NCBI GenBank assembly: GCA_041665385.1
Contig: JBAYIX010000004.1
Coordinates: forward strand, 1 to 63,684
DNA length: 63,684 nucleotides
Source of the DNA: Minisyncoccota bacterium
Lineage (GTDB): Bacteria; Patescibacteriota; Minisyncoccia; Phycocordibacterales; PALSA-1337
Direction: 5' to 3'
Shown here: one piece after another, positions 3,863 to 63,679 of the stretch
How positions within the stretch are numbered: position 1 is the stretch's first letter
Layout of the letters: each line of letters starts with the position of its first letter
Made by a program: the position numbers and the translations under genes
The notes under the pieces: model-generated
The model's database searches: none
What the model saw: only the letters and a program-made list of their open reading frames with translations
Told to the model about the DNA's origin: nothing

Positions 3863-3876
3863 TGATAGAAGAAATT

Positions 3877-3977
3877 CCAAATTCCAAGCACCAAGTTCCA
3901 AATAAATTCCAATATTCAAAAGTGAATTTGGAATTTTATATTTGGTGCTTATTTGGAGCTTGGTGCTTGGAATTTGG
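3877..3977. repeat. Long imperfect hairpin (element A), with 28-nt outer arms at 3877-3904 / 3950-3977
   Basis: The arms are CCAAATTCCAAGCACCAAGTTCCAAATA and TATTTGGAGCTTGGTGCTTGGAATTTGG: 27 Watson-Crick pairs plus one T:G at 3896/3958. An inner stem AATTCCAAtATTC / GAATTTGGAATT is also present. The arms are built from heptad-like NNNCCAA units. Confidence 0.7.
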
Positions 3978-4001
3978 TGCTTCTTACCTTATACTAATCC
4001 C

Positions 4002-5441
4002 ATGAAATACCTTCCAACTATTGGCCTCGAGATCCACGCCGAACTCAAAACATTTTCGAAGATGTTCTGCTCCTGCAAGAATGATCCTGACGAAGAAAAA
4101 CCGAACTCAAATGTCTGCCCCATTTGTCTCGGTCACCCGGGCACTCTGCCAGTTCTGAACCATGCCGCCATAAAAAAAGTTTTGATGATCGGTACTGCGG
4201 TCGGAGGAACTCATGCGGACTTTACCGAGTGGGACAGAAAGAATTATTTTTATCCCGACATACCAAAGGGCTACCAGATCAGCCAATACAAGTTCCCTCT
4301 CATTTCCGAAGGCATGCTCGCCGGAGTCGAGCTCGAAAGGATCCACCTCGAGGAGGATACCGCGCAGTCCACTCACGACACTCACAAAAATTCCCTTATC
4401 AATTTCAACCGCTCGGGTGTTCCCCTCATGGAGCTCGTCACCAAGCCCGTCATCCATGATGCCGAGACAGCAGTCACCTTTGCAAAAGAGCTCCGGCTCC
4501 TGCTCCGCTACCTCGACGCCGGCGACGCAAATATGGAAAAGGGCGAAATGCGTGTCGAAGCAAATATTTCTGTCGCATCTGAAGCAGATACAGAGGCAGG
4601 AAAGTTTGGCACCAAAACTGAAGTCAAAAACCTGAACTCATTCCGGTCTGTCGAGGGCGCCGTAGCATATGAGATCGAAAGACAGATCGCGCTCATTGAA
4701 GCAGGCGGCAAGGTAGTTCAGGAAACTCGCGGCTGGGATGATGTGAAGCGGGAAACATATTTGCAACGTGTAAAAGAAAGCTCCCATGACTATCGCTACT
4801 TCCCTGACCCAGATCTGCCCAAGATGAAGATTTCGGAGATACCAGGGTTCGATGTGAAGACACTGGAGAATAGTCTTCCGGAATTGCCATGGGTAAAGCG
4901 AGACAGGTACAAAAACAATTTTGGCATGACGGAAAAAGAGGTTGCTGTTTTTGTCGATAACCCGGAGCTGGCACGTTACTTTGAAGAGGTCATCAGCCCT
5001 GACCAAAATATGGTCAAGCTATCTACAAACTACATCTTGACTGACTACCTCGGGGCACTAAAGAAGGCAGGAGTTACTAATATAGGCACAATACCTGCGA
5101 CAGCTTTCGCTGATATCATCAAACTAATCTCTTCTGGAGACATCTCTTCACGCGGTGCAAAAGAACTCATAGCTGTCATCATCGCCGAACCGAGAGGTCG
5201 GACCTCTCCCCCCTCCCCTCGAGCCCTCGCCGAAAAGCACAATCTCATCCAAAAGAGCAATTCTGCAGATCTGGAACCCATAATTGACTCTATAATCGCC
5301 AAACACGCCTCCGTCGTCACCGAATACAAGACAGGCAAGGTCACTTCCCTGCAATTCCTCATCGGTCAGGTCATGAAAGAAAGTAAGGGTTCTGCAAATC
5401 CTGGTGTGGTAAAGGAAATGTTAATAAAAAAGCTCAACTAG
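4002..5441 (+). CDS. gatB: Aspartyl/glutamyl-tRNA(Asn/Gln) amidotransferase subunit B
   Basis: Canonical N-terminus MKYLPTIGLEIHAELK, cysteine motif CSCKND...CPICLGHPGTLPVLN, and C-terminal GatB/YqeY-like tail FLIGQVMKESKGSANP. The track ORF starts at TTG 3942 inside hairpin A; ATG 4002 restores the conserved N-terminus. Confidence 0.93.
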   Translation: MKYLPTIGLEIHAELKTFSKMFCSCKNDPDEEKPNSNVCPICLGHPGTLPVLNHAAIKKVLMIGTAVGGTHADFTEWDRKNYFYPDIPKGYQISQYKFPLISEGMLAGVELERIHLEEDTAQSTHDTHKNSLINFNRSGVPLMELVTKPVIHDAETAVTFAKELRLLLRYLDAGDANMEKGEMRVEANISVASEADTEAGKFGTKTEVKNLNSFRSVEGAVAYEIERQIALIEAGGKVVQETRGWDDVKRETYLQRVKESSHDYRYFPDPDLPKMKISEIPGFDVKTLENSLPELPWVKRDRYKNNFGMTEKEVAVFVDNPELARYFEEVISPDQNMVKLSTNYILTDYLGALKKAGVTNIGTIPATAFADIIKLISSGDISSRGAKELIAVIIAEPRGRTSPPSPRALAEKHNLIQKSNSADLEPIIDSIIAKHASVVTEYKTGKVTSLQFLIGQVMKESKGSANPGVVKEMLIKKLN

Positions 5442-5450
5442 TACGATCTG

Positions 5451-5610
5451 ACTCGAACTTGGTGAATCATGTTTTCGAGCATTCCCGCAATGCGACCTGA
5501 GTCCCGACAAATTGCCCGTATCTGCTGAATCCCTGGAAGCAGATACGGTAGCAATTTGGAGTGGGCGACCTTGCGGGAATGCGAGGAAACATGATTCACC
5601 AAGTTCGAGT
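5451..5610 (+). repeat. 160-nt compound hairpin (element B) between gatB and obg, with 40-nt outer arms
   Basis: The 5451-5490 arm pairs with 5571-5610: 37 of 40 positions are Watson-Crick. The exceptions are one T:G (5475/5586) and a tandem G:A/A:G (5477-5478/5583-5584). Inner stems are CAAATTGC/GCAATTTG and CCGTATCTGCT/AGCAGATACGG. Confidence 0.7.
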
Positions 5611-5662
5611 CCTATACTACTATCCATAGAAATCAATGGTGCACTGTGCTAATGTATGAATC

Positions 5663-7694: not shown

Positions 7695-7848
7695 GATAAT
7701 GTGAGATTTATTTTGACATCACGACTATTGATATTGATGTTACCAGTCTAGCACACAATAAAATAGTGTCACTATTTAGTTGTTAAGTTTTTTGCGTGGT
7801 CTTTCATTTATGCCGCCCAACCACCCTTCGGTTGCAAAGAGGCCCATT

Positions 7849-7975
7849 ATTATAGCACGCACGCTCTTATTTTTGGTCAAAAACATGGCTTTACTGAGCC
7901 GTATTTTTACATGCAAAAAATATGGCTCAACAGCAACATAAAAAGGGGTAAAAATAAGAGCGTGCGTGCTATAAT
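7849..7975. repeat. Hairpin element C: perfect 26-bp arms with a 75-nt loop
   Basis: ATTATAGCACGCACGCTCTTATTTTT (7849-7874) is the exact reverse complement of 7950-7975. An imperfect extension GCAAAGAGG / CCCCCTTTGC lies outside the arms. Confidence 0.75.
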
Positions 7976-8103
7976 TCCACCCCCCTTTGCCGGCGACATG
8001 GTCACTCCCCGGCTAATGACAAAAAAACCGCACTGTCTACTTATGATTAACCCCCTAATAGTCCTCATTTCATAGACTCCAAAACCCCAAGATTCAGAAC
8101 GTA

Positions 8104-14746: not shown

Positions 14747-14829
14747 GGTGTGAAAACTATAACATATGGGCAAAAGCGCGCCAATGTGGTTCGGGATTGA
14801 TGACCGGAGTAATAGTCAGGCAAGATGGA

Positions 14830-14935
14830 GCCCCTAGCACAGCAAGCTCTTTCTCCGGATTTGAAATAGTTGTGCAGGGTCCGAGTATTGATAATACTTC
14901 ACAAATCCGGAGAAGGAGCGTGCTGTGCTAGGGGC
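14830..14935. repeat. Nested-palindrome element D (subfamily 1 core, + orientation)
   Basis: The arms are 14830-14863 / 14902-14935, with 32 of 34 Watson-Crick pairs, one T:G and one A:G. The core at 14855-14910 is CCGGATTTGAAATAGTTGTGCAGGGTCCGAGTATTGATAATACTTCACAAATCCGG. Confidence 0.8.
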
Positions 14936-14971
14936 TAGGTGCCCAACCAATTTGTATTTCATTCAAAAAAG

Positions 14972-15074: not shown

Positions 15075-15716
15075 ATGAATACTTCAGAGCGGATTAACAT
15101 TGAAAATCTCCACTCCCCATATCTCACGAAAGAAACTAACCTCGAACATTGGATCGTGAAGACAGAGGAGTTTTATCGGAGGCGTCTCAAACACACAGTC
15201 GATCTCCGGCGAATGTTCGCTTTCCCGGAAAGACTGCAGTGGGCGAGTGCCATTCCTGTTTACGATCCAGGTACCCTGGACAACAATGCAGCAGTACGCC
15301 TTCTTGGTAAACAACTAGTAGAGACTGACCTCGATTTCGATGTCATGAGGTGCAAAAACAGCAAGGCAACCGGAACTCCGACACTCCACCTCATCGAAAA
15401 TTCTGTCGAACCGACTTCGTGGACACGTCCTCCCAGGGGTGCATCGCCAAGTCATCTTTTGGAAACTGAGGAAAATTTTTTGGGATTACGTGGATGGGCT
15501 ATCGCATACGCAGTGTACAATTACGTTATCACTCACGGTATCATGGACCCCACTACACTGACCTATTTCCCCGCGGACGCCTTGTCAAACGGGAAAATCC
15601 CCGGCGGCAATGGATATTCCTCACAAAAACACGTGAGGTTCACTCTTTCCGAACCTGATGAGGTATATATTTACAATGGTGCCCGCGTGGCACTGTCCGT
15701 TCCCCGGCGGCCCTAA
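15075..15716 (+). CDS. Hypothetical protein (213 aa), no recognisable domain
   Basis: Clean ORF with a strong SD and promoter. It is a plus-strand gene flanked on both sides by minus-strand genes (12536-14746 upstream, the glycosylation run from 15902 downstream). It is flanked by repeat elements D and E. Confidence 0.6.
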   Translation: MNTSERINIENLHSPYLTKETNLEHWIVKTEEFYRRRLKHTVDLRRMFAFPERLQWASAIPVYDPGTLDNNAAVRLLGKQLVETDLDFDVMRCKNSKATGTPTLHLIENSVEPTSWTRPPRGASPSHLLETEENFLGLRGWAIAYAVYNYVITHGIMDPTTLTYFPADALSNGKIPGGNGYSSQKHVRFTLSEPDEVYIYNGARVALSVPRRP

Positions 15717-15794
15717 AGTTCCTTTCGCTAAGAGCCCCATGGCACAGAGTTTCCTCTGTGCCATTTTTTGTGTGAGCCTTTGTTGGTCACCTTG

Positions 15795-15901
15795 CCCCCG
15801 AGACTGCACACGGCATTTTGCCGGATTTGCGAGCTCTTATGATTACCCGGATCATGCACAACTTCTCAAATCCGGCAAAATGCCGTGTGCAGTCTCGGGG
15901 G
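15795..15901. repeat. Nested-palindrome element E (subfamily 2 core, - orientation)
   Basis: Perfect 35-bp arms at 15795-15829 / 15867-15901 (CCCCCGAGACTGCACACGGCATTTTGCCGGATTTG). The interior is CGAGCTCTTATGATTACCCGGATCATGCACAACTTCT. The right arm abuts the stop codon at 15902-15904. Confidence 0.85.
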
Positions 15902-17158
15902 CTACACTCTACCGCTCTTCACAAAAAAGTAAACATTGATGAGCAACATCACCACCCACGATACTCCGTTTTCCACCACCGCCCCCGCGAGCCCATAACT
16001 ATAGATGAGCACCACCGATAGAAATATCGTCACAATATTACTCAGCACCGTGAGCTTGTAAAGTGTCACCGTATCCCTCTTCACTTGAAAATATGAACTG
16101 AAAAGCGCTATTCCCGGCACAGTAGCAAGCCCAAGCATATATACCTGCGAATACCAGACCGCGTCCAAATACTTCGGAAAGAAAATAGCATAGATATACG
16201 GCGCAGCAAAATAATAGACCGCAACACCAAGGATCGTCACAGCTGTCAGACGAAAGACCTTATCGAGCACACTAGCGCGGAGTAGGCTCGGATCCGCACT
16301 CGACATCTTTGGCAGAGCAATATTAAAAAGGTTTTTATAGCTTCCCTTCACCTGCTCCGGTATAGCAATAGCAAAAGCATAGATCGCGAGCTCTGCCGCG
16401 CCCAAGAAATGAAATACTAGAACCTTGTCGAGCTGATTTGCGAGCGTACCAAAGAAGTTCATATAGCTCACATGCTTGCCATACGATATCATATCCGGAT
16501 CTGTAACATTGTTTGGCTGATATTTCCGAATAATATAAAAATAGAATAGACTTGCAAATATCGCACTTGAAATAAAATTTACTGCTACGAGCACTACGGC
16601 ATCATGTATGAATATCGCGGTAACTATGAGGAGTAGTGTCGTACCTATCTGTGACGACATTGCAAACACTGTCGATCTTTTGAAATCCTTCCTACCGGAA
16701 AAAAGTGAATTCGACAGACTGTAGGCATTTATGAGGGGCATACATGTACCTGCGATGATCAATGCGATACCAAGTCCGATATTTTCTACGAAGAAATAGT
16801 ACAGTGCCATAACAAGCGCCACTGCCCACGGGAACACACCCCAGCGTAGACTGGTCCGCACTGCATCTCGGAGCACACCCTCCTTCCCCGCCGCGACAGC
16901 CTGTATGACGGCAGTTCCCATACCCGCCAAAGACAGCGCGCCCAGTATGCTCACCGCAGAGAGTATGAACTTGTAGTTACCATACACTTCGCGTGGCAAG
17001 TATGCCGCGAAAACAACTGCGGAGGCAAAAACCAAAGCCAGAGAAATAGCCTGACCAAAGGAAGTCCAAAATCCGGATACAACCGCATAGAGCATATCGG
17101 TCTTGAAGTACCTTTCGCTCAGACGCAAGAGATCATATGTTTTTTGCTTTATAGACAT
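15902..17158 (-). CDS. Wzx-like oligosaccharide/polysaccharide flippase (MOP superfamily)
   Basis: 418 aa with ~12 predicted TM segments. The N-terminus (LRLSERYFKTDMLYAVVSGFWTSFGQAISL) and overall architecture are typical of polysaccharide biosynthesis flippases. Confidence 0.65.
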   Translation of the reverse strand: MSIKQKTYDLLRLSERYFKTDMLYAVVSGFWTSFGQAISLALVFASAVVFAAYLPREVYGNYKFILSAVSILGALSLAGMGTAVIQAVAAGKEGVLRDAVRTSLRWGVFPWAVALVMALYYFFVENIGLGIALIIAGTCMPLINAYSLSNSLFSGRKDFKRSTVFAMSSQIGTTLLLIVTAIFIHDAVVLVAVNFISSAIFASLFYFYIIRKYQPNNVTDPDMISYGKHVSYMNFFGTLANQLDKVLVFHFLGAAELAIYAFAIAIPEQVKGSYKNLFNIALPKMSSADPSLLRASVLDKVFRLTAVTILGVAVYYFAAPYIYAIFFPKYLDAVWYSQVYMLGLATVPGIALFSSYFQVKRDTVTLYKLTVLSNIVTIFLSVVLIYSYGLAGAVVENGVSWVVMLLINVYFFVKSGRV

Positions 17159-17901
17159 TACTTTAGTCGGAGCACGTATATCATCTCATGGAACAGACCA
17201 GGGATGATATGACGAAATACAATGTCCGCCAATGGTTGAAGTGTACGACCCAGCACCGGAATCGCCCAGAGCTTTGGCACAAAGAGACCGTTCGGAATTT
17301 TCTTTATGATATGAAAATGCTTCCGAAGCATGATCTCATACTTGGCATACGACACATAGTCTTTGCGATACTCCGCATCTCGAAGCTTGAGCCTGGCATG
17401 TATAGAGTCATGTGCCGCCAGACTGGTCATATATATGCCATCTTTTTTTATATACTGTTTCAAAAAAGCCATTTCACCTTCATATATTGCCGGTGCTAAG
17501 TAGCCTAGACCGAGAGCGATATCAAATGAACCTTCCATGCCCGCATTGGGAAAAACTTGGTTATCTTTTACAAAAAAAGAAATTTTTGGATCAGTCGTGA
17601 TACGCTTCGCTGTCTCGATCATATCTATGGAAATATCCGTACCGACTAGAGCAGAAAAGTTTTCCGGAAATCTTTGCGAGACTGCACGTGTCATTACTCC
17701 ATCTGCACAGGCAATATCTATGAGTTTCATATCCTTTTTTCCACTCACATATTTTGCCAATAAACGAAGTGTTATTGCTAACCTATTCTGGAAAAAGTAT
17801 TGGGTATAACTTTTGGGCGCACCGAGATAGCGCTTCCTTGAATAGGATTCGCTTTCTTTGTTATAGAAGGAAATTATTTCGGTTTCTCTAGGATTTGGCA
17901 T
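17158..17901 (-). CDS. Class I SAM-dependent methyltransferase
   Basis: Motif I-like KLIDIACADGVMT followed by an acidic residue (VGTDIS). It overlaps the downstream gene by 1 nt. Confidence 0.65.
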   Translation of the reverse strand: MPNPRETEIISFYNKESESYSRKRYLGAPKSYTQYFFQNRLAITLRLLAKYVSGKKDMKLIDIACADGVMTRAVSQRFPENFSALVGTDISIDMIETAKRITTDPKISFFVKDNQVFPNAGMEGSFDIALGLGYLAPAIYEGEMAFLKQYIKKDGIYMTSLAAHDSIHARLKLRDAEYRKDYVSYAKYEIMLRKHFHIIKKIPNGLFVPKLWAIPVLGRTLQPLADIVFRHIIPGLFHEMIYVLRLK

Positions 17902-17915
17902 GAATGTAGACGCAC

Positions 17916-18027
17916 GTCATGAAAGGTAATTGTGGGCTTTTTGTATGATTTGTGAAGTATTATCAATACTCGGACCCTGCACAACTATTTCAAATTATAC
18001 AAAAAGCCTGCAATTACCTTTCATGAC
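17916..18027. repeat. Nested-palindrome element F (subfamily 1 core, - orientation)
   Basis: The arms are 17916-17946 / 17997-18027: 29 Watson-Crick pairs plus T:G and G:T. The 38-nt interior is the exact reverse complement of element D's interior. The right arm covers the stop and last 4 codons of the 18014 gene. Confidence 0.85.
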
Positions 18028-19204
18028 CATTGTACCATTTGAGCAAATATTTGATACGCTCGTCAAGACTGAAATATTTTTGCACACGCTCGCGTCCGGC
18101 AGCACCAAAGGCCACTGCTTTCGCCTCATCTTTTAGAAATTCGACCATACGGCCTGCGACTTCGCTAGTATTATTCGGGTCTACTACATAGCCGGTCTCT
18201 CCGTGTGCAACGACTTCCTTTGTACCACCATATTTCGTGCCTACGACCGGCTTGCCCGCCGCCATAGCCTCCAGATTGATAGTTGGAAACGGGTCGAGAT
18301 ACAAAGATAGCACGGTTACCAACCGAACAGACAATATTGCACGCTCCATGTCCTCATGACTGAGCCAGCCTAGAAACTTTATACTTTTTTCTATATCGAG
18401 TTCCCTTGCCCGATCATGGATCTTTTTAGCAATATCAGTATCAGCTTTTCCCGCAATGAGGAGAGTTGTATCGGGTACATCTTTCAAAATTTCTTTCATG
18501 GCGGCGAGTGCTACGAAGGCACCCTTTGCTCCCGAAAGTCGCCCGCCGAATAGAACAAAATGATCACTGACAGAGGTCGCCGTGTAAGCGCTCTCAGTAA
18601 TTGGAGCAATGCCATTATGCATCGTCACAACATTTTCAATTCCATTTCTTTGTAGAGCCGTGCGCAAAGCATCACTCACAGCAAACACCCGATAAACATT
18701 TTTTAAATATCTCTTTATTACTATATTACGAAATGGATTATAGCTGGTACGGTATTCCATAAAATCCTTCCACGCAGAATGCGGACGATCTTCTTCCGAG
18801 ATCTTACCGTAAGCAAGGGTCATAGCATCATGGGCAGTCAAAAACACTCTGGCACCGCTTTCTTTTGCCAACTTGAGCGCATAGTAAGAAATATGCTCGT
18901 GGATATTGTGTGCATGGACGACGTCGGGATGTAGATCTCGTACTATTTTTCGAAGCTCTTTTATCAGAGGCTTATTATTGAGACTTTTATACGCCCGCAC
19001 ACGCCGAGGGTAATTGGAATATATCCGATGAATAATAATTCCATTTTCCTCAAAAGTACCAACTTCTTCCTTTTTTTGTACAGAGGTCACAACTACGACT
19101 TCATGACCGAGGGTCCGGAGAACCAGAGCATCACCGTGCGCTATTATGCCCGCACCGCCCTGGGCATGTGGTGGAAAGTCATCGGATAGGATGAGAATGC
19201 GCAT
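18014..19204 (-). CDS. Glycosyltransferase family 4 (GT-B fold)
   Basis: MRILILSDDFPPHAQGGAGI N-terminus and a C-terminal E-x7-E-type region FPTINLEAMAAGKPVVGTKYGGTKEVV. Confidence 0.8.
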   Translation of the reverse strand: MRILILSDDFPPHAQGGAGIIAHGDALVLRTLGHEVVVVTSVQKKEEVGTFEENGIIIHRIYSNYPRRVRAYKSLNNKPLIKELRKIVRDLHPDVVHAHNIHEHISYYALKLAKESGARVFLTAHDAMTLAYGKISEEDRPHSAWKDFMEYRTSYNPFRNIVIKRYLKNVYRVFAVSDALRTALQRNGIENVVTMHNGIAPITESAYTATSVSDHFVLFGGRLSGAKGAFVALAAMKEILKDVPDTTLLIAGKADTDIAKKIHDRARELDIEKSIKFLGWLSHEDMERAILSVRLVTVLSLYLDPFPTINLEAMAAGKPVVGTKYGGTKEVVAHGETGYVVDPNNTSEVAGRMVEFLKDEAKAVAFGAAGRERVQKYFSLDERIKYLLKWYNGHER

Positions 19205-44839: not shown

Positions 44840-45906
44840 TTCATTTTTTCTACCATATTCCTTATGAGGACCGGTAAATCTGCCCGCTCCTTCGCAATCC
44901 TCTGAAGATCTTTGGTAACTGCCTGAATATCCCCAGAAGAAAACAGAGCTATGATCTTCGATGCCAGATCTTTCGCATCGTTTTCTAGAAACAAGAGGCT
45001 TTCTGCATAAACACCAAAATATCTTTCATAAGTCTTATTTGAAGCCAGCACCGGCACACCGGCCGCCATAGATTCGAGCACGGACTTATCGACTCCACCT
45101 GTAGGTGCCAGATTTACGGAAATATCCGTGGAAGCATATTGCTGGGGCATGTCGGCGTTCAATACTCTTCCCACAAATCTTATCTCCCCATTCAGTCCAC
45201 TCTCATCTATAAAATTTCGGAGTTTCTTTGCGTATACTTCATCCTGTTCTGTAACAGGAGCGCCCACGAGAAGTATTTCAAATTTCTTTTGCCATGTTTT
45301 TTTCAGGATAAGAGCCGCTCGAACCAAGGTCTCAAAATTCTTTATCTCCGTGATCCTGCCAGCATGGATTATCCGCACCGGTTCTGTACCTATCTCCTTT
45401 GTGCGGACGACTCTCACATATGCATTCACATCTATGCCATGACCGATGATCTCCACCTTTGTGCTATCCAGCTGAAAGCTCTCGAGAGAAGCAGTGAATA
45501 TCCTGTCACAAAGTTTTTCTGCGATACGCAACTTCATATCCACATTGCGGTGCGTATACCAGAGAAATATCTTTTTCCCCATAATCTTCCACGGCAGACC
45601 ACCCAGAACTACATATATGGGATTCATGTGAACAAAAACTCGGTCATATTCTTTTCTCTCTCGAATAATGTGACGGTAAAACGCTAGGCTATACGCAATC
45701 CTGTCAAAAAGACCAGAATATGTTTTCCTCTTCTCTTTACCGAGTGAGATGACTCTCACGTTTGGAGGTAGACTGTGCCGACCCTCTTCGAGAGATATGA
45801 CCGTGACTCTCTCATAGTATTTTGCATACTCTGTTATCCAGGAATGAAAAAAGGCAAGATACGAGTTATCCATGTCTACACTCTGAGTTGTGATCAAGAT
45901 TTTCAT
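44836..45906 (-). CDS. Glycosyltransferase family 4
   Basis: RIIHAGRITEIKNFETLVRA...GGVDKSVLESMAAGVPVLASNKTYERYF. Confidence 0.75.
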   Translation of the reverse strand: MKILITTQSVDMDNSYLAFFHSWITEYAKYYERVTVISLEEGRHSLPPNVRVISLGKEKRKTYSGLFDRIAYSLAFYRHIIRERKEYDRVFVHMNPIYVVLGGLPWKIMGKKIFLWYTHRNVDMKLRIAEKLCDRIFTASLESFQLDSTKVEIIGHGIDVNAYVRVVRTKEIGTEPVRIIHAGRITEIKNFETLVRAALILKKTWQKKFEILLVGAPVTEQDEVYAKKLRNFIDESGLNGEIRFVGRVLNADMPQQYASTDISVNLAPTGGVDKSVLESMAAGVPVLASNKTYERYFGVYAESLLFLENDAKDLASKIIALFSSGDIQAVTKDLQRIAKERADLPVLIRNMVEKMK

Positions 45907-46343
45907 GAAACCAAGCTTTGTTTGAAGATAAGCTTTTGATATACGAAGAAACTAACTATCGCTATACATCCTGCCGCTATGATCTGAGATATCATGTAAT
46001 GAGAACCGAATATGTCCGTGAGCAAGTACATGAGGCCTGTATTCACGGCCAAGTTTATGACACTTACCGTAAAATAAAGTGCACCCTGAGCACCCACACC
46101 GTCACTGGAATGATCTCGGAACGTCCAATACTTTTGCAAAGTGAAGCTCACGCAGAAGGCAATGATAAAGGCGAATACCGTCGAAACTAGATACCATATG
46201 TGCAAAATATCCGTAAAGAGGTAAAGGAAGGCCAGGTCCGTGACCGCCGCCGTACCGCCAGATATGACATAACGCGCGATCTTCATTTTTTTTGCGTGCT
46301 TTTCATCCAAAGTGGCATAAGTATTTTTCATCCAGGTGATCAT
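45903..46343 (-). CDS. GtrA-family membrane protein (polyprenyl-phosphate-sugar flippase family)
   Basis: 146 aa with 4 TM helices. ARYVISGGTAAVTDLAFLYLFTDIL...SFTLQKYWTFRD is the GtrA-like signature. Confidence 0.8.
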   Translation of the reverse strand: MITWMKNTYATLDEKHAKKMKIARYVISGGTAAVTDLAFLYLFTDILHIWYLVSTVFAFIIAFCVSFTLQKYWTFRDHSSDGVGAQGALYFTVSVINLAVNTGLMYLLTDIFGSHYMISQIIAAGCIAIVSFFVYQKLIFKQSLVS

Positions 46344-59802: not shown

Positions 59803-59810
59803 TTGTGTAG

Positions 59811-59919
59811 CACAAAAGGGCTCATAACAAACTTTTTCCGGATTTGAGAAGTTGTGCAAAGTTCGGGTAATCATAACAGCTCGCAAATCCGGAAAAAGTT
59901 TGTTATGAGCCCTTTTGTG
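59811..59919. repeat. Nested-palindrome element H (subfamily 2 core, + orientation)
   Basis: Perfect 36-bp arms at 59811-59846 / 59884-59919 (CACAAAAGGGCTCATAACAAACTTTTTCCGGATTTG). The interior is AGAAGTTGTGCAAAGTTCGGGTAATCATAACAGCTCG. It lies between convergent genes. Confidence 0.85.
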
Positions 59920-59926
59920 CCCCGCC

Positions 59927-63614: not shown

Positions 63615-63679
63615 CGAAATTGCAAGACATTTTGACGTTCAGTCATCAGCAACCGACGTCAAAATGTCTAGCAATTTCG
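63615..63679. repeat. Hairpin element I (24-bp arms, 17-nt loop) at the window edge
   Basis: CGAAATTGCAAGACATTTTGACGT (63615-63638) pairs with ACGTCAAAATGTCTAGCAATTTCG (63656-63679); 23 of 24 positions are complementary. It may extend beyond the window. Confidence 0.65.

Follow-up and report, generated by a model that had tools for sequence, protein, structure and literature searches.

A glycosyltransferase gene of a Minisyncoccota bacterium ends within one arm of a ~110-bp DNA palindrome, which probably did not copy the gene end

In a 63,684-nucleotide stretch of DNA from a Minisyncoccota bacterium (contig JBAYIX010000004.1, positions 1 to 63,684; hereafter the window), the last codons of a GT4-family glycosyltransferase gene lie within one arm of a long hairpin, element F, and recur in inverted orientation in the other arm. 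Most likely the hairpin was not templated by the GT4 gene, whose frame simply reaches its end a few codons into one arm. The reading that we favor, with a probability of roughly 55%, is that F was inserted, or grew, at a gene junction that had no spacer; that the GT4 frame runs three codons into it; and that the mirror copy is simply the other arm, whose complementarity is maintained by templated copying.

Results

Element F and its neighbors

The features of the locus are as follows.

17158–17901, minus strand: SAM-methyltransferase gene, 247 aa, orthologous to the gene found overlapping, adjoining or fused with GT4 in relatives
17888–17920, minus strand: ten-codon mini-ORF MTCVYIHAKS*, read from the sequence, with its ATG in the 3' arm (TCATGA)
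17902–17915, minus strand: 14-nt spacer between hairpin F and the methyltransferase ATG (GTGCGTCTACATTC on the minus strand)
17916–17952, no strand assigned: left arm of hairpin F, the 3' arm on the sense (minus) strand, pairing with the right arm
17948–17995, minus strand: conserved 48-nt asymmetric center of F (ATTTG...CAAAT), identical at 48 of 48 positions to the center of copy D at 14829–14936
17991–18027, no strand assigned: right arm of hairpin F, the 5' arm on the sense strand
18014–18027, minus strand: arm-encoded end of the GT4 ORF, (G)GT CAT GAA AGG TAA, that is (Gly)-His-Glu-Arg-stop, a tail found in no homologue
18014–19204, minus strand: GT4-family glycosyltransferase gene, 396 aa (Pfam Glycos_transf_1, 2e-35; Glyco_transf_4, 5e-18)

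The original prediction had described an inverted repeat whose right arm holds the end of the GT4 gene, and this was confirmed: an inverted-repeat search returned arms of 37 nt each, paired at 34 of 37 positions (92% complementary) across a 38-nt spacer, with the arm-encoded codons listed above inside the right arm. The arm sequence occurs at only these two places in the window, and no such pair appeared in 100 shuffles. As RNA, the sense strand of F is predicted to fold with −49.9 kcal/mol (z = −7.7). The outer 17 nt (GTCATGAAAGGTAATTG) are identical and perfectly paired in both arms, while the three mismatches, all of them transitions, fall in the inner 20 nt (chance ~0.16); on the sense strand all three are A·C and none is G·U.

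The left arm ends at 17916, leaving 14 nt to the methyltransferase ATG at 17901. If the 146-aa ORF at 45903–46343 is counted, only two gaps longer than 100 nt, of 112 nt and 193 nt, occur between 15902 and 49557, in line with the earlier statement that the hairpin fills one of two such gaps in the operon. An independent ENA assembly contains the identical hairpin, and Logan contigs of two groundwater runs, one from 2018 and one from 2022, cover it, so that it is not an assembly artefact. A search of F against Rfam 15 gave no match at the gathering thresholds, the sub-threshold matches being to generic long hairpins (miRNA precursors). F also differs from an intrinsic terminator, having a loop of 38 nt and, after its 3' arm, GTGCGTCTACATTC without a U run; a terminator scan listed none at F.

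The arm-encoded tail of the glycosyltransferase

The GT4 ORF ends TGG TAC AAT GGT CAT GAA AGG TAA (WYNGHER*), and the right arm of F covers 18027–18014 of it, beginning with the second base of the Gly codon and including the stop. In an alignment of GT4 proteins the invariant positions end with Y391, and homology runs out at WYN(G), precisely where the arm begins. The nearest homologues end in WYNA*, YYNV*, CYNA* and WYDKRNE*, and the nucleotides TAC AAT G are common to the window and to two of the relatives (L008 and L011) up to the first base of the arm. Among 117 GT4 homologues the tail after the conserved Tyr measures 0–21 aa (median 4), and in none of them does it resemble GHER. In the closest relative, L006, it comprises 5 aa, the same length as in the window.

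As an alternative to its main claim, the original prediction had considered that the C-terminus was remodeled by read-through into the element. This fits the data better: the tail His-Glu-Arg is encoded by the arm and is shared by 0 of 117 homologues.

The methyltransferase on the other side is 57.9% identical to that of L006, with which it agrees in total and in N-terminal length (MPNPRETE-IISFY in the window, MSESQRSD-IISFY in L006). Because the N-terminal length is the same, the ATG at 17901 is taken to be the original start. The ATG of the right arm was rejected as an ancestral methyltransferase start, as it would lengthen the N-terminus by at least 9 aa beyond that of any relative.

The palindromic TCATGA at the base of the stem places an ATG in the 3' arm as well, thereby opening the mini-ORF MTCVYIHAKS*. 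The mini-ORF (17888–17920) terminates, 14 nt inside the methyltransferase gene, at a TAG that shares its phase with the stop/start overlaps seen in the relatives; judged from this position and phase, it could hand ribosomes across the insertion. Shine–Dalgarno sites are nearly absent upstream of the ~45 genes of the window, where most of the sequence is A-rich or falls within the gene before; an exception is the orphan gene at 15075–15716 (AAAAGGTGAAAAG ATG). An argument from a lost ribosome-binding site (Shine–Dalgarno) was accordingly dropped, most genes here being without one.

The junction in syntenic relatives

By the homologues of the proteins encoded next to F, the organism belongs to the Patescibacteria (CPR). 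The best GT4 homologues of the window have 49–51% identity, and the relatives overall are 49–58% identical. They keep the gene order YfhO – GT4 – ... – methyltransferase – GT4 – methyltransferase (247 aa) – flippase, and their GT4/methyltransferase junctions are the following.

L006 and L007: 8-nt overlap, ...WYDKRNE*, A ATG AGT GA
L008 and a 48-kb JGI contig: 8-nt overlap, ...YYNV*, A ATG TCT AG
L011: 5-nt gap, ...CYNA* CTGTC ATG
L009 and L010 (P0015): genes fused into a single 646-aa ORF

In these four independent syntenic relatives, no long inverted repeat and no match to the family model (see below) was found at the junction. Since the junctions of the relatives contain neither a hairpin nor the non-coding DNA seen here, the 112-nt gap of the window is derived and is filled by the hairpin; relative to these genomes, F is an insertion. 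Furthermore, with a junction spacer of 5 nt or less, any insertion that survives must overlap the dispensable tail of one of the two ORFs. The original prediction had argued that a palindrome is unlikely to include the end of a coding sequence; at a junction that lacks a spacer in four relatives, overlap with an ORF is instead almost unavoidable. The comparison with orthologues that it proposed was carried out, the outcome named as refuting the prediction being element-free genes that end differently and lack the arm sequence. As far as relatives of ~50% identity can show, this is what was found, element-free orthologues having other C-termini and no copy of the arm, in agreement with an ORF that simply terminates inside an inserted palindrome.

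Exact removal of 17916–18027 yields a stop-free frame of 644 aa joining GT4 to the methyltransferase through the linker NGASTF, which may be compared with the natural 646-aa fusion P0015. We discounted this as an argument, because shifting the boundary by 1 nt yields an equally plausible junction with a 14-nt overlap and because the fused relative is the most distant one. A homologue search for fusions with the joined GT4::methyltransferase protein found nothing and is uninformative. P0008 (622 aa) is a fusion of GT4 to another type of methyltransferase, the one that lies upstream in the window. In the syntenic 48-kb relative contig, it is a methyltransferase gene that lies between the flippase and Wzy_C/TPR genes.

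No joints representing empty-site alleles were found in the two groundwater runs that hold the organism. Two further runs contain relatives that are ~95–99% identical, represented by single-read contigs that lie away from the junction only.

A family of palindromes with a conserved center

Three further copies of the same kind of element lie in the window.

14829–14936, plus strand: copy D, center identical to that of F, arms unrelated to those of F
15794–15902, minus strand: copy E, second-subfamily center, first arm base coinciding with the final base of the flippase stop
59810–59920, plus strand: fourth window copy, second-subfamily center, starting 8 nt past the Mur ligase stop

Scans with the center pattern (i) identified two contigs in JGI metagenomes, holding three copies; (ii) gave no true copy among the GTDB representative genomes, the single match (L005) being a chance match inside a Sphingorhabdus coding region; and (iii) had no match among viral contigs. 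The family thus comprises seven readable copies, four in the window and three on the two metagenome contigs, which belong to another organism. A covariance model (R1) built from the seven matched only those seven within the 114 kb scanned. A literature search for such elements in Patescibacteria returned no description, only unrelated papers on TIGR-Tas and plasmids.

All seven copies have a common layout, an ATTTG...CAAAT module of 47–48 nt inside arms of 30–38 nt; F, with 32 nt of arm outside ATTTG/CAAAT, is typical. The centers of F and D match those of the second subfamily (15794–15902 and 59810–59920) at ~75% of positions. The inner arm follows a loose family pattern (a GC block, a T run, ~5 nt, then ATTTG), to which F conforms. 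The outer 17–27 nt of the arms are unrelated between copies, save in the adjacent pair L2a/L2b (p ~0.001), and the outer 17 nt of F are like those of no other copy. GC content does not mark the outer arm of F as local, as arms span 43–73% GC and F is no outlier. In the other six copies the arm overlaps a coding region by at most 1 nt. The center strand corresponds to the sense orientation in all four window copies, and of the metagenome copies one or more run antisense to both neighboring genes. A flanking direct repeat of more than 2 nt, as a target-site duplication would leave, is present at none of the seven copies, which also share no termini, and no transposase-like ORF adjoins the copies.

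Several further observations concern the copies and their surroundings. Two copies on the metagenome contig L002, at 2161–2283 and 2656–2778, have the same orientation, are 373 nt apart and share a GCACTGC block in their outer arms; one L002 copy has a diverged center (CTGTGTA for CCGGGTA) that the exact pattern missed. In runs X1/X2, contigs from the source aquifer match the center (at 17937–18006) and then continue into at least four further, mutually different arms, for example GCCGGCAGTGTGCTCCTTTTGTTCCT with its exact complement; these private arms imply more copies of the family in the aquifer community. GTGTA stands directly before the arm in both second-subfamily copies, at 15897–15904 (GTG TAG, the flippase stop) and at 59803–59811 (TTGTGTA, past the Mur ligase stop), and may reflect preferred targeting, the remains of an outer arm or coincidence. 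Further long hairpins, whose centers differ, occur at 5439–5622, 7834–7990, 63615–63679 and 3869–3985, the first of which, 184 nt in length, starts exactly on the TAG stop of the ORF at 3942–5441; long palindromes between genes seem to be common throughout the genome.

Arms and centers have separate histories

In an alignment of the seven sequences, 27 of 40 stem pairs are altered on both sides. Among the mismatches on the core strand across the family, A·C is at least as frequent as G·U, which points to symmetry maintained at the level of DNA rather than to selection on an RNA stem.

Copies D and E are particularly informative in this respect. Their arms are only ~60% identical (differing at ~40% of positions), yet each of the two hairpins is 94–97% self-complementary, so about a dozen arm positions have changed on both sides together. 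Next to the hairpins, on the same side of the center, 12 of 14 nt of interior flank match (AGGTGCCCAACCAA versus AGGTGACCAACAAA); the arms have therefore diverged more than the 14-nt flank. As D and E share arms and flank by descent, the arms were inherited with the hairpin and were not rebuilt from the flanks at each locus. Arms that drift fast and in concert indicate that one arm is copied from the other; for this family, the sequence comparisons support such arm-to-arm copying at the level of DNA.

The center of D matches that of F at 48 of 48 positions and that of E at ~75%, while the arms of D are unrelated to those of F. Identical centers within unrelated arms imply that centers have been exchanged between hairpins independently of the arms.

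D and E bracket, in inverted orientation, the orphan gene at 15075–15716 (plus strand; 213 aa), which had no match in a Pfam search and has a canonical terminator at 15739–15764. The unit formed by D, the orphan gene and E looks like a cassette with inverted ends that consist of a hairpin plus flank.

Discussion

How the gene end came to lie in the arm

Under the reading that we favor, F would be a copy of a Patescibacteria (CPR) family of ~110-bp DNA palindromes with a 48-nt center and locus-specific arms, which entered the junction between the GT4 and methyltransferase genes or instead grew there. With no room at the junction, the GT4 frame would pass from ...WYN-G into the outer arm and stop at the first in-frame TAA, after His-Glu-Arg, while the methyltransferase would still begin at its original ATG, 14 nt past the hairpin. 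What appears as an inverted copy of the gene end would then simply be the second arm of the palindrome. The arms would be held as complements by arm-to-arm copying of DNA, through template switching during replication or hairpin-primed repair, with the arm sequence drifting quickly and centers being swapped between hairpins. Such copying would imply that the last codons of GT4 now sit in a unit that the opposite arm rewrites again and again. The insertion relative to the other genomes, the arm-encoded tail, the joint changes in the arms and the mosaic of centers and arms are shown by the sequences; the copying mechanism, and a GHER* that is derived and not ancestral, are what we infer from them.

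The order of events may also have been the reverse, an alternative that we hold tentatively and consider clearly less probable. The GT4 gene would already have ended in NGHER and its TAA, a short hairpin (the center with inner arms of ~20 nt) would have lain 3 nt past the stop, and the stem would have been extended outward with the gene end as template, template-switch or hairpin-primed copying writing the reverse complement CAATTACCTTTCATGAC on the methyltransferase side. Recent outward extension would leave what is seen in F, perfect outer 17 nt with all three mismatches in the inner arm; the inner arms follow the family pattern, while the outer 17 nt match no other copy; the 5-aa GT4 tail has the same length in L006; arm-to-arm copying operates in the family; and the template-switch mechanism is documented. 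Template-switch (quasipalindrome) mutations create, perfect and extend inverted repeats, as in the Ripley model (Monttinen & Loytynoja 2022, PMC8794818), and PMC13100816 and PMC8604942 likewise describe template switching as creating, extending and repairing perfect stems. The original prediction knew of no standard transposition mechanism for such a copy; replication template switching is a known mechanism that could supply it (PMC8794818).

However, extension from the gene end presupposes that the ancestor had 17 nt or more of spacer, whereas in the four relatives the junction measures −8, −8 and +5 nt and, in the last, is a fusion. It would also be a coincidence that homology ends at the arm boundary, exactly where three close homologues stop. 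Moreover, as the total arm length of F is typical, its arms before extension would have been unusually short; no arm of the six other copies reaches more than 1 nt into a coding region; and the arms of D and E are inherited rather than rebuilt from the flanks. The evidence for the gene end as template (the inner position of the mismatches, the 5-aa tail of L006 and the unique outer 17 nt) is modest. The case for copying from the gene end is weakened by these sequence comparisons, with the qualification that the relatives are ~50% identical and the tail is hypervariable, so that GHER* may still be ancestral.

The proposal that arms arise by inverted duplication of flanking DNA when the core arrives is likewise not supported, given the spacer-free junctions of the relatives, the end of GT4 homology at the arm boundary and the inherited arms of D and E. 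The original prediction is thus supported in part: the mirror relation is real and copying between arms is supported for the family (D/E; 27 of 40 pairs), whereas a role of the gene end as template is less probable.

A possible RNA element, and template switching as a process

A different explanation, which we regard as improbable, is that the hairpin is a functional RNA element of the operon transcript (an RNase III site, an mRNA stabilizer or an intercistronic translational device), in which case selection on the RNA would maintain the stem and the hairpin would overlap the stop codon by design. A very stable 37-bp stem is predicted in the sense transcript, the center is sense-oriented in four of four window copies, the stop lies in the 5' arm while the ATG mini-ORF from the 3' arm overlaps the next start codon, and the genome is largely without Shine–Dalgarno sites, all of which would suit such a role. 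On the other hand, the mismatches of F on the sense strand are all A·C, with A·C at least as frequent as G·U across the family; one or more metagenome copies are antisense to both neighbors; Rfam has no match above threshold; and no U run follows the stem, ordinary terminators being used elsewhere, e.g. at 15739–15764.

Template switching as a general process is similar to what we observe in that it writes a reverse-complement copy of adjacent DNA and produces perfect Watson–Crick stems and multi-base 'compensatory' changes. Adjacent segments that are reverse complements, together with paired changes (27 of 40 pairs; D/E), were found here. The process fits the concerted arm changes of D and E, and it would explain a mirrored gene end; the GT4 tails of the hairpin-free relatives (~50% identity), YNA*, YNV* and YDKRNE*, are without the arm sequence. 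Yet template switching is a mutational process and not an element, and it leaves the 48-nt center, the uniform arm length and the movement of centers unexplained.

Relation to known palindromic repeats

Correia/NEMIS elements of Neisseria, ERIC, RUP and the Rickettsia palindromic elements are MITE-like palindromic repeats that overlap the ends of ORFs, those of Rickettsia lying inside genes. Similar to the family described here, repeats of the Correia/ERIC/RUP type are small non-coding hairpins of ~100–150 bp at gene borders, present in several copies per genome and sometimes supplying stops or residues. They have conserved terminal inverted repeats, usually with target-site duplications, whereas in the window family the termini differ in every copy, duplications are absent and the conserved part is the center. 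We therefore rejected a MITE, as there are no common terminal inverted repeats (the termini differ in the seven copies) and no target-site duplication. REP, BIME and REPIN sequences likewise are palindromic repeats located between genes, at gene ends, and paired changes can occur in their stems. Unlike the arms described here, REP stems are short (~20–40 nt in total), are conserved in sequence within a genome and are associated with the RAYT transposase.

Integron attC sites are hairpin sites of 57–141 bp that vary in sequence, keep their structure and act as folded single strands. Their layout is the opposite of that seen here, with conserved outer boxes (R''/R'; RYYYAAC / GTTRRRY), extrahelical bases and a variable center. 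An attC site was rejected, the family of F having variable ends and a conserved center and the window neither a cassette array nor an integrase. The window also contains no gene of the Ssn/GIY-YIG hairpin system (PMC11893778).

Implications

Were the gene end indeed the template of a palindrome arm, this would be an insertion footprint new for bacterial repeats; the plainer reading is more likely. We can conceive of a class of structure-defined DNA hairpins in Patescibacteria genomes in which arms are continually rewritten one from the other and the center hops or is converted independently, and in which copying at tight junctions takes the last codons of a gene as template or overwrites them; C-termini would thereby be rebuilt, and genes split or uncoupled, without end recognition of the transposase type. 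In its strongest form, acquisition of the center would trigger an inverted duplication of a measured ~17–25 nt of flank. We think it unlikely that this bolder scheme is correct.

At the locus itself, a hairpin has been wedged into a junction that overlaps or is fused in relatives, and the C-terminus of a protein has changed with it. Two translationally coupled genes are now separated by the 112 nt of F, with its very stable secondary structure. The comparison of D, E and F provides direct evidence that arms and centers have had separate histories in a family not previously described, and the locus makes arm-to-arm copying and center exchange testable in the minimal genomes of the CPR.
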